A DNA stretch of 64,000 bases from an uncultured Flavobacteriaceae bacterium. Its GTDB lineage: Bacteria; Bacteroidota; Bacteroidia; Flavobacteriales; Flavobacteriaceae. The stretch spans positions 147,940 through 211,939 of the forward strand of contig CAWEUV010000001.1 in the NCBI GenBank assembly GCA_963812405.1, read 5' to 3'. The notes under the pieces are model-generated. The model did no database searches, was not told where the DNA came from, and saw nothing but the letters and a program-made list of their open reading frames with translations. Below are positions 19,316-24,597 of the stretch, one piece after another. Each line of letters opens with the position of its first letter. Within the stretch, counting starts at the first letter, position 1. The position numbers were made by a program, and so were the translations under genes.

Positions 19316-19687
19316 TTATACCAAATTCGTCTGCAATAAATGTTTTACTTTTTTAACTAACTCTGTCGGATCAAAAGGTTTTGCTATGAAATCGTCAACG
19401 CCTAAATTGGAAACTTCCACAACGGTTTGATCTTCTTTTCCCAATGAGGAAATCATGATTATTGGAATGTTCGGATAATTGGTTTTTGAAAACAGCGTAA
19501 TTTCCAAACCGGATTTGAAAGGCATCATAATATCCGAAATGATTAAATCCGGAAGTACTGTTTCAATTTTTTCGATTCCCTGAATCCCGTCTGTGGCGAT
19601 ATGGGTTTCAAATCCTTCTTTTTTCAGAAGAAAATCCAAAATATTGATGATAATCTTATCATCTTCAATAAGTAATATTTTTTTCAT
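19316..19687 (-). CDS. Stand-alone response regulator receiver domain
   Basis: LIEDD acidic pocket, phospho-acceptor SDIMMP, ISS, AKPF; no output domain. Confidence 0.92.
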   Translation of the reverse strand: MKKILLIEDDKIIINILDFLLKKEGFETHIATDGIQGIEKIETVLPDLIISDIMMPFKSGLEITLFSKTNYPNIPIIMISSLGKEDQTVVEVSNLGVDDFIAKPFDPTELVKKVKHLLQTNLV

Positions 19688-19807
19688 ATATGTAAAATTT
19701 ATTTGTTACAGGTCATATATGGTATCGCTTTTTATTTATTGGTGTTTGCTTGCGCAAACTTCTTGTTAATGGCGATTTCATGCGTATGCGGTATTTAAAT
19801 TATAGAT

Positions 19808-21058
19808 TTAAAATTTGTACTGAAGTGAAAAAAACAAATCGAATTCGTTTTGAAAAGCATCCGGAGCGTATTCCTGATGATTAAACATTCCTTGTAAACC
19901 AACACAATAATGTTCCCATAACAGTTTGTAATATCCGGCTCCGATTCTGTAGGAACTCAAGGCAACCCTTTGTTGGAATTGTCCCAAAGTTACTCTTTCG
20001 TCCGGTGAGGTTCCATAACCGGCAATTACAGTTGCATAATCGTATTTGGTATCAAAATAATAACGTGTCGTAGCGGTGAAAGCCGGATACATTTTGCTGT
20101 TTTCCCATTGCCAATATGATTTCAGATTGAACCAATAGGAACCAACATATTTTCCGATGCCAACCACTCCGGCACCTAAATCTTTATCAACGGTTCTTGT
20201 GTAACGAACTCCTAAATCGCCTTCCCAACTTTTACCCAGTGTATGGAAAAAGGAATAAGCGGCGCGAAGTGTTGGGAAAACCGTATTGTCACCCAAAGCA
20301 ACATTGGCAAACGAATAACTTTTTTTGCCATGTGTGAAATAGGTTTCGAATTCCGATTGGAATCCCGAATTGACACTTTCCCCGAAATAACGACGGTCGG
20401 CAAAATTGACGCGGCCGATTAGGGTTAATTTTTTTCGTTCCCGGATGTATTGTAATCCGAGTAAATGCCACGGTCCAACACCATTGCGACTGAAAGTGGT
20501 GAAATTATAGTTCAATCCGATGCGGTCGGAAACGGATTTCAGTTTTAATTCGGTTAGCTGATTTTGTAAATTTTTATCATCAGGAAATTTTTCGGCAACG
20601 GAATTCAGATAGTTGATGGATTTTTCATCGTCTTTTTCCAAAGCAATAGCATCCGATTTCAACAGATAGAATTCTTTTTCCTCCGGATAAAAAGTGATGG
20701 CTTTGTCTAAAACAACCATAGCATTGTTACTGTTTTTTTTCTCGATTTCCAATTTCGAAAGATAACTGAATGCCTCTTTGTATTTTGGATTTTCGGTTAT
20801 GACATGATTGAAATAAAAACGCGCACTGTCTTTTTGTTGTGTCATCCAGTAAGCTCTTCCCAAAAGCAGGTGAAAGTCTAAATAATTGGGTGCTTTTTTG
20901 ATGCCTAAACGCGATAATTCGATTGTTTTGACGTAATTTTTATTGGTATTTAACTCAAATGCCGTTTTTACCAAAAGACTGTCTGTATCAATTTTTTGGG
21001 CTTGTAAACCAATTGAATATACGAGATTGAAAATCAGTATGAATACTACTTTTTTCAT
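19808..21058 (-). CDS. TPR plus YaiO-family outer membrane beta-barrel protein
   Basis: Signal peptide, TPR-like helices (LLLGRAYW...NPKYKEA...AITFYPE), amphipathic strands and terminal SLQYKF (BAM-type C-terminal Phe). Confidence 0.8.
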   Translation of the reverse strand: MKKVVFILIFNLVYSIGLQAQKIDTDSLLVKTAFELNTNKNYVKTIELSRLGIKKAPNYLDFHLLLGRAYWMTQQKDSARFYFNHVITENPKYKEAFSYLSKLEIEKKNSNNAMVVLDKAITFYPEEKEFYLLKSDAIALEKDDEKSINYLNSVAEKFPDDKNLQNQLTELKLKSVSDRIGLNYNFTTFSRNGVGPWHLLGLQYIRERKKLTLIGRVNFADRRYFGESVNSGFQSEFETYFTHGKKSYSFANVALGDNTVFPTLRAAYSFFHTLGKSWEGDLGVRYTRTVDKDLGAGVVGIGKYVGSYWFNLKSYWQWENSKMYPAFTATTRYYFDTKYDYATVIAGYGTSPDERVTLGQFQQRVALSSYRIGAGYYKLLWEHYCVGLQGMFNHQEYAPDAFQNEFDLFFSLQYKF

Positions 21059-22488
21059 AGTTTCTGATTTGAATTAATAAATCCTTTGCGCGACATAACG
21101 CCCCATTTTTGCTCTTTTCTTCTCAGGAAATTCCAATATCCTTTTATGGAGGCATACACGTTTAGCGGATGGTAAATAAACGGTTCCAAAAATACCATTA
21201 CAATTAAGGTAAGCATTTCTTTAATGTTCGAATAGTGCTGGTACACCAACTGATCCAGAAGCACTGATAATAACGTAATCGCGGTGTAAAACAAATAAAT
21301 GAAAACGCTCACAATCAGTAAGAAATGGTAATTAATGTCGAAAAACAGTAAATCCAATACCAATACTGTAAGTCCGATAACCTCTAAAATTGGAACGGCA
21401 AATTCAAAGAATACAAAATATGGAAAGGCGAGCAATCCGGTTTTGCCGTATTTCGGATTCAGAAAGACTTTTTTGTGTAAAGTGAGGGTCTGAATCAATC
21501 CGCGCGCCCATCTTGTTCGCTGTTTCATGAACAATTCCATGCTACTGGGAACTTCTGTCCAACACAAGGTCTCGGGAATGTATTTGATTAGGAAATTTTC
21601 CTTTTTCTCATGCATGTATTTTCGCATACGGGTAATCAGTTCGATGTCTTCTCCCAGCGATTTATGCCAATATCCACCTACTTTAATCACGGTTTCTTTA
21701 TCGAACATTCCGAGTCCGCCGGATACTAAAAGCAAGCTGTTCATTTTACTCCACGCCATTCGTCCGAAGATAAAGGCACGGATGTATTCCAATTCCTGAA
21801 ATCGTGCAAAAAAGTTATCCGGATAATGCGATTGGTACAATTCACCGTCTTTAAATTCACAAGAATTGGAAATTCGAATGGTGGCTCCGGTTGCGATAAC
21901 TTTTTCGGTATTTTCAATGAAAGGTTTGGCTAAAATGGCGACCGCATCTTTCCGTAAAATGCAATCCACATCGGTACAAAGGAAAAGCGAATATTTGGCC
22001 GAATTGATTCCGGCATTCGAAGCATCGGCTTTGCTGTTACCATTCACTTTATCGATAACCAATAGTTTTGAATAGATAGGGTTGGTCGATTTATAATGTC
22101 CTCTAACGGGTTGTGTATGAATCTTTTCCTGATAAAAAAAGTCAACTTTCACCAGGCTGAATTCGGAAATAAGCAGGTCTAAAGAGTTGTCTGTACTGCC
22201 ATCGTTAATGATAATGACTTCAAATTTCGGATATTCCTGTGACAATAAGGATTTTACGTTGTAAACAATTGTTGCCGACTCATTAAAAGCCGGTGCAATG
22301 ATGGAAACACCAATCGTATGGTTCGATTTCACCAATACGCCTTTGTGCAGATAATATTTTGAATTGTAATATTTCTTAATCGCCAAATACGACAATAGTG
22401 CCAAAAGCAAATATAAAATCACATAGCTTATGGAATAATAAGCCGCAAAAGTTTCGTAATGTTTTATAAAAAATTCTAACGTTTTCAA
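21055..22488 (-). CDS. Processive membrane GT2 glycosyltransferase (PgaC/IcaA/cellulose-synthase-like)
   Basis: N-terminal TM, APAFNE, NDGSTD, KADASNAG, TDVD, GED, QRTRW, then about three C-terminal TMs. Confidence 0.9.
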   Translation of the reverse strand: MKTLEFFIKHYETFAAYYSISYVILYLLLALLSYLAIKKYYNSKYYLHKGVLVKSNHTIGVSIIAPAFNESATIVYNVKSLLSQEYPKFEVIIINDGSTDNSLDLLISEFSLVKVDFFYQEKIHTQPVRGHYKSTNPIYSKLLVIDKVNGNSKADASNAGINSAKYSLFLCTDVDCILRKDAVAILAKPFIENTEKVIATGATIRISNSCEFKDGELYQSHYPDNFFARFQELEYIRAFIFGRMAWSKMNSLLLVSGGLGMFDKETVIKVGGYWHKSLGEDIELITRMRKYMHEKKENFLIKYIPETLCWTEVPSSMELFMKQRTRWARGLIQTLTLHKKVFLNPKYGKTGLLAFPYFVFFEFAVPILEVIGLTVLVLDLLFFDINYHFLLIVSVFIYLFYTAITLLSVLLDQLVYQHYSNIKEMLTLIVMVFLEPFIYHPLNVYASIKGYWNFLRRKEQKWGVMSRKGFINSNQKL

Positions 22489-23699
22489 TTCAGATAGGGA
22501 TTAGTAACGTGTAACACGATCTTTTTAATGGTATTGTTTTCGGTTTCATTTTCTGCGGTAAAATGGTCAAAATAGGTTTTGTCAATTTTATTGATGCAGT
22601 TTACGATTTCGAATTTAATTTCCAGATCGTTTTCCGAGGTTAAAATTTCAGTGGCGAATTGCAGCGTTTTAGTATTTCCGATGATTCCCAGCGTTTTTAA
22701 ACAGGAAATTCGGTTTCGTTTGTTGCTTTCTGTTGGATAATGATCCATCAGTGTTTTGTTGGCTTCACCCAATTTCAATTCCCTGATAGCCAATAAGGTT
22801 TCTTTACGAACCAGAACATCGTTGTTTTGTAAAAGATGATTTATTTGAGTAATAGTCAGTTGTTCTTTATATCGAATTATAAGTTTCAGTGCCAGAATTA
22901 CGATGGAATTGTTCTCATGGTAAATCCATTTTACGATGTTTTCGGGAAGTTTGGATTTTTTCTGATAAATGATGTCCAGAATTTTTAGTTCGTCGGCTCT
23001 TGAAATTTTTTCCGTGTAAAGGTCCAAAACGCCGAATTTTTCATCGGATAACGCAATGGTAGCAATTAAAGCGTTCGAGCGGAGGTATTTGTTTTTATGA
23101 TTTAAAAAAGATTTGAACTGTCCTTTTTTGATTTTATAATCCAAAACCTGATAATGGTAGATGCCCAGTGATTTGAAATACCATCTTCGGTCATTGATTA
23201 AGCGCTGACTGTAACTTTGCAAGCCAAAATATTTGTAAACCAATAAAATCTGATTCTGATCGAAACCGTGAATGTTTTGTTTGAAATGAATTAGTTTATT
23301 AAGGATTAGATAGCGGCACCATTTTTCGTCGTATGGAATTTTGGTTTTGAAATCGGCTATTTTTTCCTTCATTTCTTTTCCGCTGTAACTTGAGAAAATA
23401 ATTTCAGTTAAAAAATCATTTACTAATGTGTCAATTTCTTTTTTCTTGAGTGCTAACTGCTCATGTTTGTATCGGTTGATTACCAGTGAAAAAACCAGCA
23501 GTATAATAAATAAAAGGAAAAGGGGTATTATAACGAATTTTAAAACACTAAAAATAAATTCTGTCGAAAAAGGCGTACTTGGTAAAGTAAGTATAGGACT
23601 GTTAAAATAATCGAATTTTGTAAAGAAATCTGAACTACTGATTTTATGGATCAGATTTAGGGTTTCATCTTTAGATAAGACTAAAAAAGGATTAATCAT
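22485..23699 (-). CDS. Membrane-anchored HEAT-repeat protein
   Basis: One TM (about aa 49-75), then helical repeats (LRSNALIATIAL, VILALKLI, VRKETLLAIREL, RISCLKTLGIIG, IKFEIVNCI). Confidence 0.8.
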   Translation of the reverse strand: MINPFLVLSKDETLNLIHKISSSDFFTKFDYFNSPILTLPSTPFSTEFIFSVLKFVIIPLFLLFIILLVFSLVINRYKHEQLALKKKEIDTLVNDFLTEIIFSSYSGKEMKEKIADFKTKIPYDEKWCRYLILNKLIHFKQNIHGFDQNQILLVYKYFGLQSYSQRLINDRRWYFKSLGIYHYQVLDYKIKKGQFKSFLNHKNKYLRSNALIATIALSDEKFGVLDLYTEKISRADELKILDIIYQKKSKLPENIVKWIYHENNSIVILALKLIIRYKEQLTITQINHLLQNNDVLVRKETLLAIRELKLGEANKTLMDHYPTESNKRNRISCLKTLGIIGNTKTLQFATEILTSENDLEIKFEIVNCINKIDKTYFDHFTAENETENNTIKKIVLHVTNPYLN

Positions 23700-23783
23700 A
23701 AAAAATTATCACAATGTCAAGGTTATTTAGGTTTTTATATAACAGATTTGGGGGAATCCTTGAATAAAAATCAAAATTTCGGT

Positions 23784-23791
23784 CAAATATA
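23784..23791 (-). promoter_or_regulatory. -7 promoter box (TATATTTG) for the HEAT-GT2-YaiO operon
   Basis: TAnnTTTG match 84 nt upstream of the first ATG; no clear -33 TTG seen. Confidence 0.45.
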
Positions 23792-23832
23792 GAGATAAAA
23801 TTAGTTAATGGTTAGTTAAATGTTTGTTTTGG

Positions 23833-24597
23833 TTAAAATCCTTCAAACACTCCTAATCCAAATAAGGCAAAATCGTATTTTACAGGATCGTTAGGGTCGA
23901 GCAGGCGCAGGTTGGTATCCAATTCAAATAGTGCTTTCGCATCGTTTTGCTTTCGAGTAAGCAATTCCAGTTTTCTTGCTACATTTCCGGAATGTACATC
24001 TAAAGGACAGGAAAGTGCCGCCGGAGAAATACTTTTCCAAATTCCCAAATCCACACCTTTATTATCCTGACGGCACATCCAGCGTAAATACATGTTAATT
24101 CGTTTCGCTGCCGAACCTTTCATCGGGTCGGAAATATGTTTTTCGGTTCGGGGTAAATGGTTGATTTCAAAAAAGATTTTCTTAAACTCCGAAATACTTT
24201 TCTGCATGGAATTCGGTTCCTGATGTTGGGAAAAAACGGCTTCGAGTCCGTTATGATTTTGGTAAATGTGTTGCAGACTTTTAATAAACCCAACAAAATC
24301 CTGACTATTGAAAGTGCGGTGTACAAAAGTAGAAAAGCGTTCCAAATCGTCGTTATTGTGCGACATGATGAAATCGTAAGGCGCATTTCCCATCAAATCC
24401 ATCATTTTTTTGGCGTTGTTGATGATCATTTTGCGATTTCCCCATGCAATGGTAGCAGCAAGAAAACCGGCAATCTCGATATCTTCTTTTTGGGTAAACA
24501 AATGCGGAATCTGTATCGGATCACTTTCGATGAAATCCGGACGGTTGTATACTTCGACTTTTTCGTCGAGAAAAGACTTTAACTCGGAAAAATCCAT
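23833..24597 (-). CDS. TIGR02757 (DUF2400) family protein, HhH-GPD-like
   Basis: FIESDPIQIPH, IAWGNRK, SAAKRINMYLRWM, PLDVHSGNVAR, DPVKYDFALFGLG. Confidence 0.85.
   Translation of the reverse strand: MDFSELKSFLDEKVEVYNRPDFIESDPIQIPHLFTQKEDIEIAGFLAATIAWGNRKMIINNAKKMMDLMGNAPYDFIMSHNNDDLERFSTFVHRTFNSQDFVGFIKSLQHIYQNHNGLEAVFSQHQEPNSMQKSISEFKKIFFEINHLPRTEKHISDPMKGSAAKRINMYLRWMCRQDNKGVDLGIWKSISPAALSCPLDVHSGNVARKLELLTRKQNDAKALFELDTNLRLLDPNDPVKYDFALFGLGVFEGF

Follow-up and report, generated by a model that had tools for sequence, protein, structure and literature searches.

A four-gene operon in the genome of an uncultured Flavobacteriaceae bacterium (assembly GCA_963812405.1) is likely to encode a synthase-dependent machine for the synthesis and export of a polysaccharide. 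The operon occupies positions 19316 to 23699 of the window, a 64,000-nt stretch of contig CAWEUV010000001.1 (positions 147,940 to 211,939 of the forward strand), and consists of four tightly packed minus-strand open reading frames (ORFs). In order of transcription they specify a membrane-anchored HEAT-repeat protein, a membrane family 2 glycosyltransferase (GT2), an outer-membrane protein with tetratricopeptide repeats (TPRs) and a YaiO-type barrel, and a stand-alone receiver (REC). The combined proposal, namely such a machine under regulation by its receiver, is on the whole favored by the data.

A first-pass annotation of this DNA, generated by a model from the letters and an ORF listing, had placed the four genes behind a TATATTTG box and had noted 4-nt overlaps among the first three. 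The coordinates turned out to be exact. The box, a Bacteroidota-type -7 element of the form TAnnTTTG (23784-23791, minus strand), precedes the HEAT start codon by about 85 nt, and six close relatives share its TAnnTTTG core without change. The leader that follows (23700-23783) gave no match in Rfam and no significant fold. Both overlaps are real: HEAT and GT2 genes share TTGA at 22485-22488, GT2 and barrel genes share ATGA at 21055-21058, and a 4-nt overlap between HEAT and GT2 genes (ATGA or TTGA) is present in 46 of 57 related loci. These two genes are thus predicted to be translationally coupled. A Pfam and NCBIfam scan upheld all four domain calls of the annotation, as well as its statement that the operon has no module for cyclic di-GMP (c-di-GMP): Pfam found no PilZ, GGDEF or MshEN domain in the four proteins.

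The GT2 gene (21055-22488, minus strand, TTG start) encodes a protein of 477 aa, 99% identical to its counterpart in Flavobacterium cauense R2A-7 and matched by the Pfam families Glycos_transf_2, Glyco_tranf_2_3 and Glyco_trans_2_3. The processive motifs on which the annotation had relied, DGSTD (D96), TDVD (D173, D175), GED (279-281) and QRTRW (323-327), are present and invariant in an alignment of 24 sequences reaching down to 38% identity. Together with one N-terminal transmembrane (TM) segment and a C-terminal hydrophobic block at 350-407, they supply all the hallmarks of a processive GT2 (D, DxD, (T/G)ED, QxxRW and a TM bundle downstream of the catalytic domain). In BLASTP, the protein is 27% identical to Escherichia coli PgaC over 281 aa (E=6e-23). 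When a profile of the GT2 family was used to search the whole chromosome of E. coli K-12, PgaC was the sole full-length match (E=3e-17), spanning positions 58-108 and 149-455 and including the membrane part; matches to the lipid-carrier (polyprenyl-phosphate) GT2s of E. coli were confined to the N-terminal nucleotide-binding segment. Against the PDB, the same profile aligned residues 258-380 with BcsA and a wider stretch with hyaluronan synthase (HAS), in both cases covering the junction of catalytic and membrane parts. A PDB search with the single GT2 sequence returned N-terminal GT2 folds only, the family profile being required to reach BcsA and HAS. Since the profile and PDB alignments extend into the membrane part, the enzyme groups with processive membrane synthases, nearest to PgaC, and not with non-processive lipid glycosyltransferases, as the annotation had anticipated. 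The best NCBIfam match is TIGR03937 (PgaC_IcaA) and NodC appears among the weaker ones. Altogether, the protein is a predicted inner-membrane processive synthase of the PgaC/BcsA/HAS type, without being a PgaC equivalog.

The third gene (19808-21058, minus strand; 416 aa) had been described as encoding a YaiO-like barrel with signal peptide, TPRs and a terminal Phe, and each of these features was recovered. The N-terminus is signal-like and ends in LQA|QK; the C-terminus reads ...QYKF. The protein matches YaiO PF19413 over the full model (positions 2-173 of 173; 1.4e-41, 142.8 bits for a cut-off of 23.9) and TIGR04390 with 81.2 bits (cut-off 32), thus exceeding both curated thresholds. E. coli YaiO itself scores 92.7 bits on PF19413. 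An AlphaFold2 model (mean predicted local distance difference test, pLDDT, 89.4) contains 10 TPR helices, about five TPRs, at 25-172 and a 14-strand barrel at 177-415. In Foldseek searches, BcsC leads for the whole protein (E=1e-10), and the barrel alone superposes best on the 14-strand OmpG, followed by PelBC, the PgaA barrel and AlgE. As modeled, the third protein thus joins a TPR arm in the periplasm to a 14-strand outer-membrane barrel of the YaiO family. The family assignment is made because the Pfam and NCBIfam profiles match; a direct pairwise link was also sought, and comparison of the barrel alignment with the lone E. coli YaiO sequence in hhalign gave no significant result. Pfam assigns the barrels of E. 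coli NfrA and PgaA to families different from this one.

The first gene (22485-23699, minus strand) encodes a 404-aa protein with a HEAT_2 match (6.5e-7) and one strong TM segment at residues 56-74. Its AlphaFold2 model (pLDDT 84.9) shows about 45 disordered residues at the N-terminus, a long helix at 46-102 that includes the TM segment, and 18 further helices forming an alpha-solenoid. In some relatives the TM segment is preceded by a signal peptide and SPOR domains, so that the N-terminus is to be placed in the periplasm and the HEAT domain in the cytoplasm; the single-TM, cytoplasm-facing topology proposed in the annotation is therefore retained. Four such relatives (P0199, P0200, P0203 and P0237) carry one or two of these peptidoglycan-binding domains, by which a cytoplasmic HEAT subunit would be tethered to the cell wall. 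We propose that the HEAT protein is the co-subunit and regulatory platform of the synthase. A Foldseek search for a functional homologue gave generic HEAT/ARM solenoids only (PP2A-A, alphaRep). Long family members were inspected for receiver-HEAT fusions of the Rosetta-stone kind, and their N-terminal extensions proved to be SPOR domains or extra HEAT repeats. The family is large, with 424 clusters (50% identity) at E<=1e-30 and 1551 at E<=1e-10. Of the four proteins, HEAT is the fastest evolving (92% identity to F. cauense R2A-7, the others 97-100%), and the region of its gene (22001-24000) has a G+C content of 0.33, compared with 0.37-0.39 around it.

The genes of the operon are conserved together, a point that the annotation had named as a check on its reading. 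Among 59 loci fetched from Flavobacterium, Mesonia and metagenome-assembled genomes, 55 keep HEAT-GT2-YaiO and two more miss the barrel gene. In Flavobacterium the flanks are syntenic too (LolD-like ATPase, DUF2400, DEAD-box helicase). Mesonia has other flanks, and there 4 nt separate the HEAT gene from the receiver gene upstream. A search with a HEAT profile found homologues in 43 of 401 Bacteroidota genomes, representing 28 of 178 genera. The distant set comprises 19 bona fide clusters in 18 genomes from about 10 families and several classes. Their flanks differ and their gene order varies (REC-HEAT-GT2-X-YaiO, REC-YaiO-HEAT-GT2, or a divergent YaiO gene); a receiver of the same family is present in 19/19, and a YaiO-type barrel in 17/19. 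In 15 clusters REC stands immediately upstream of HEAT, at gaps of -8 to 68 nt. Recurrence in shuffled orders and different surroundings indicates a functional module, beyond what synteny would explain.

As confirmed here, the module is distributed within Bacteroidota. An alignment-based word search returned mostly Flavobacterium. A query derived from Kryptoniota reached proteins of other phyla, of which three were checked: one belongs to a true HEAT-GT2-REC-histidine kinase cluster, and the matches in Phycisphaerae and Anaerolineae are generic HEAT proteins without a GT2 neighbor. One Flavobacterium genome (L110; G307:C19:142000-161000) carries both paralogous systems in tandem, REC-HEAT-GT2-sulfatase/TPR-YaiO and, immediately after it, HEAT-GT2-YaiO-DUF4838-REC. 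Signs of decay of the operon are also seen in this genus: a diverged HEAT gene alone remains between DUF2400 and the DEAD-box helicase in L070 (G095), L051 and L022 have truncated GT2s (369 and 326 aa), and the barrel gene is missing from L014 and L031.

The fourth gene (19316-19687, minus strand) encodes a 123-aa stand-alone CheY-like receiver and matches the coding sequence of its F. cauense R2A-7 counterpart at 100% identity. Response_reg PF00072 matches at 3.9e-24 and Pfam reports no output domain. The phospho-Asp, D52, is intact, as had been noted, within a complete pocket (E8, D9, D10, S80, F100, K103). Orthologues of this receiver occur with the module in Mesonia and at least 10 further families, in most cases as the gene just before HEAT. 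In distant relatives the module adjoins kinases: hybrid kinases in L093, L095, L104, L105 and L112, with the architectures HisKA-HATPase-REC-Hpt, GAF-HK-REC-Hpt and PAS-HK-REC-REC (HK, histidine kinase), and a histidine kinase plus Hpt protein in L119. One additional context reads REC / REC-Hpt / HEAT / GT2 / REC / HK. From gene adjacency we infer a possible receiver-HEAT contact. The annotation had the signal pass through the HEAT scaffold; that route has the adjacency of REC and HEAT genes as its basis and is no more than a candidate. Regulation of the machine by the receiver through HEAT and/or GT2 is a plausible proposition, which we put forward with some hesitation. The receiver is best seen as a subunit of the machine, with phosphorylation as an ancestral input that appears to be retained here and dispensable elsewhere.

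To our knowledge, the well-studied synthase-dependent machines (cellulose, poly-N-acetylglucosamine (PNAG), alginate, Pel, Nfr) are all switched by c-di-GMP. The present genome, which is 99.99% complete, encodes no GGDEF and no PilZ domain; control by c-di-GMP is therefore impossible here, in line with the annotation's view that the switch is a different one. None of the features by which a c-di-GMP receptor activates such machines (PilZ, PelD, PgaCD interface, MshEN) was found in the four proteins. Across the 401 Bacteroidota genomes sampled, GGDEF occurs in 212, with only 2 listed in the class of the window, Bacteroidia, and it is absent from all 35 genomes with a HEAT match at E<=1e-18.

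Clues to the product come from accessory genes in related operons. Between the barrel and receiver genes, 31 Flavobacterium operons have a gene for a secreted DUF4838 protein of about 740 aa (at L029:8701-10914, for example, and likewise at 30 other loci). The DUF4838 profile aligns with GH20 beta-hexosaminidases over N-terminal, catalytic and C-terminal regions, and a conserved Q-N-D-D lies opposite the GH20 G-x-D-E motif. DUF4838 is the catalytic domain of GH163 (endo-beta-N-acetylglucosaminidase) and GH185 (6-sulfo-beta-N-acetylglucosaminidase), which cleave beta-N-acetylglucosamine (GlcNAc) bonds by substrate-assisted catalysis, using the acetamido group (PMC10570127). Because of the DUF4838 gene in sister operons and the affinity of the GT2 to PgaC, a beta-linked, GlcNAc-containing polymer is our best guess for the product. 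In paralogous systems, a protein of about 800 aa with N-terminal TM segments, a sulfatase-superfamily domain nearest to LtaS/OpgB, and TPRs is encoded between the GT2 and YaiO genes (L093:3133-5514, L103:10500-12929, L099:9003-12668, L105:4537-7974), and in some genomes it is fused to the GT2 C-terminus (1145-1221 aa). By analogy, its presence suggests decoration with a phospho-substituent, as in phosphoethanolamine (pEtN)-cellulose. The description of the operon as a minimal machine thus holds for this lineage and not for relatives, which add the DUF4838 glycosidase or the LtaS/OpgB-like transferase with TPRs.

A feature overlooked in the first-pass annotation is a 94-nt dispersed repeat (19682-19775, minus strand), which fills most of the 120-nt gap between barrel and receiver genes and sits at the ancestral start codon of the latter. 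It is bracketed by ATGAAA at 19776-19781 and 19682-19687, contains the hairpin GTTTGCGCAAGCAAAC, and has no counterpart in F. cauense R2A-7 or three other relatives. The genome has 9-10 copies, among them C1:212517-212611, C2:1728101-1728195, C2:1728807-1728905, C2:1813922-1814017, C2:1827789-1827879, C2:1865006-1865097, C3:102009-102106 and C4:238451-238541. ATGAAA flanks nearly every copy, two having a one-base variant on one side, and for 8 of 9 full-length copies a plausible ORF (123 to >500 aa) opens, as Met-Lys, with the 3' ATGAAA. The repeat seems to insert at ATGAAA start codons and to duplicate them, an event that would keep the gene whole and place a short upstream ORF and a new 5' region in front of it.

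A mechanism can be outlined for the polysaccharide machine. The GT2 would polymerize a housekeeping UDP-sugar, most likely and at least in part UDP-GlcNAc, into a beta-linked chain and thread the growing chain through the inner membrane, with the TM helix of the HEAT protein packed on the synthase in the manner of PgaD or IcaD. The TPR arm would take over the chain and the barrel would pass it through the outer membrane. By binding the HEAT solenoid and/or the GT2, the receiver would tune synthase activity post-translationally, standing in for c-di-GMP, which the genome cannot make. In this strain, D52 could still receive its phosphate from acetyl phosphate or from a kinase whose gene lies elsewhere, and phosphorylation would probably be a modulating input, not an absolute requirement.

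Several observations weigh against this interpretation. The 126.6 bits of the GT2 on TIGR03937 fall far below the equivalog cut-off of 422.3, so that the match prescribes neither sugar nor linkage. A pore of 14 strands is narrower than the 16-18-strand pores of PgaA, BcsC and AlgE. The ORF listing shows no periplasmic polymer-modifying or -cleaving enzyme in the operon, and the DUF4838 gene is absent from the whole genome. Since the housekeeping genes on either side are syntenic as well, conservation within the genus is weak evidence for a functional unit, and the absence of c-di-GMP signaling is a trait of the entire class, not of module carriers specifically. Expression of REC in this strain may be uncoupled by the repeat. 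As for phosphorylation, a search of the whole genome returned no Hpt domain, and the 23 HisKA hits all fall outside the contig of the window. This strain is thus not equipped for a multi-step relay with an Hpt protein and its cognate hybrid kinase, which is encountered in distant relatives only. The phosphorelay switch envisaged in the annotation survives in part: the receiver is intact and distant systems have hybrid kinases and Hpt, whereas Hpt is wanting in this genome and HisKA on this contig. Finally, 22 of 54 Flavobacterium receiver orthologues have T, A or S in place of the phospho-Asp (L027, L029, L032-L042, L045, L047-L051, L053, L054 and L057). All 22 belong to a subclade resembling F. 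johnsoniae, whose operon also carries DUF4838, and their gene position is kept; the residue is T52 in F. johnsoniae-type species; D9 is usually changed to N or S together with the lost Asp. Receiver function is therefore not always dependent on phosphorylation, and the idea of phosphorylation as an obligatory switch is weakened.

These losses raise an alternative in which the machine is the same and its receiver is a constitutive subunit with a structural or adaptor role, independent of phosphorylation and on its way to a pseudo-receiver, with control exerted mainly at transcription or through receiver abundance. Retention of the operon place by the Asp-less receivers, the N or E found at the phospho-Asp site in two distant systems, and the lack of an adjoining kinase at any window-type locus examined all speak for it. 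Nonetheless, we consider this alternative unlikely: the acidic pocket is whole, with S80, F100 and K103 in place, in the receiver of the window and every one of its closer relatives, and the Asp is preserved in 18 of 20 receivers of distant systems, several of them beside Hpt hybrid kinases, which is hard to explain without phosphotransfer.

A second alternative holds that the receiver no longer takes part in the system here and has become a separately expressed orphan response regulator, split off by insertion of the repeat. It draws on the length of the gap, 120 nt with repeat and hairpin as against 8-33 nt in most close relatives lacking DUF4838, and on the equal synteny of the neighboring housekeeping genes in Flavobacterium. 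This appears improbable given that receivers of the same family accompany HEAT-GT2 in unrelated flanks, orders, families and classes, that the coding sequence is unchanged from F. cauense R2A-7, and that the repeat has regenerated the ATGAAA start, as at eight further genes. Less probable again is a GT2 product other than a secreted polymer (a periplasmic or membrane glycan resembling osmoregulated periplasmic glucans (OPG), a short oligosaccharide as made by NodC, or a lipid-linked sugar, with the barrel serving another role), for which the 14 strands, the NodC match and the LtaS/OpgB-like phosphoglycerol-transferase of paralogous systems, an enzyme type that also decorates periplasmic glucans, could be invoked, and against which stand QRTRW and the C-terminal TM bundle, the alignment of these parts with PgaC, BcsA and HAS, the restriction of the polyprenyl-phosphate enzymes to the N-terminal segment, the overlap or abutment of the GT2 gene with a TPR-barrel gene whose best fold matches are polysaccharide exporters, and the barrel kept in 17 of 19 distant clusters.

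We know little of how matrix polymers are controlled in Bacteroidia, be they from soil, water, fish or gut, and the polysaccharide machine with its receiver offers a testable answer for organisms free of c-di-GMP: a receiver and a HEAT co-subunit in place of the nucleotide receptor. If correct, the proposal would assign the YaiO barrel family a defined function for the first time. Orthologues that have kept or lost the phospho-Asp form a natural series for the change from receiver to pseudo-receiver, and the polymer may play a part in how Flavobacterium forms biofilms, adheres and adsorbs phages. More speculatively, the module could represent a separate class of secretion system, typical of c-di-GMP-free Bacteroidia, in which a PgaC-like synthase is obligately paired with a HEAT solenoid, a CheY-like receiver docked on the solenoid gates synthesis of a GlcNAc-containing polymer, the polymer leaves through an exceptionally small 14-strand YaiO pore, and the receiver has become phosphorylation-independent in one Flavobacterium lineage; we regard this fuller version as a tentative conjecture, and not the likelier outcome. 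Literature searches aimed at the module yielded no description of a HEAT-GT2-YaiO-receiver system, and the curated libraries Pfam and NCBIfam name its parts generically only.

Among known systems, Pga/Ica is similar in having a PgaC-like GT2, a single-pass partner whose gene is coupled to that of the synthase (PgaD/IcaD), an exporter made of TPR arm and barrel, and no precursor-sugar genes in the locus. It differs in that the partner in the window is a 404-aa HEAT solenoid and not PgaD, that no CE4 deacetylase or GH153 (PgaB) is present, and that the barrel is YaiO PF19413 with 14 strands instead of PgaA_barrel PF21197 with 16. BLASTP found no similarity to PgaD, PgaB or PgaA in the operon proteins, the GT2 stays far below the PgaC_IcaA cut-off, and the c-di-GMP control of Pga is impossible in this genome. 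Bcs and Pel come close in fold: the exporter is nearest to BcsC and PelBC, the GT2 aligns with BcsA at 258-380, and the sulfatase-superfamily transferase of the paralogous Bacteroidota systems recalls BcsG. However, the operon lacks PilZ, BcsB, BcsZ, PelD and a GT4, and its barrel has 14 strands, not the 16 of BcsC.

In E. coli, NfrB/NfrA/YbcH makes a surface glycan that is the receptor of phage N4 (PMC8669469, PMC8669472). This compact operon likewise combines a membrane GT2 with a TPR/barrel outer-membrane protein; unlike the operon studied here, it includes YbcH, a c-di-GMP-binding MshEN domain in NfrB and an NfrA_C barrel in NfrA, and BLASTP detected no significant similarity of NfrB or NfrA to the window proteins. 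The uncharacterized yaiO-yaiX-yaiP-yaiS cluster of E. coli also places a YaiO-family barrel gene beside a membrane GT2 gene. Its YaiO has no TPR arm and is not significantly related to the window barrel in pairwise comparison, YaiP matches the window GT2 family weakly, and the cluster has an acyltransferase and a deacetylase and neither HEAT protein nor receiver. For the mode of control, the sole precedent found is in Myxococcus, where EpsW, a stand-alone, phosphorylatable single-domain receiver, activates the polysaccharide enzyme EpsZ post-translationally by direct binding (PMC12802240). EpsW-EpsZ is not homologous to the present pair: the target of EpsW is a phosphoglycosyl transferase of a Wzx/Wzy pathway, and neither a HEAT protein nor a processive synthase is involved (PMC12802240). 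In conclusion, judged by synthase, partner, barrel family, c-di-GMP receptor and modifying enzyme, the system falls within none of the established groups, yet it would work like Pga, Bcs, Pel and Nfr.

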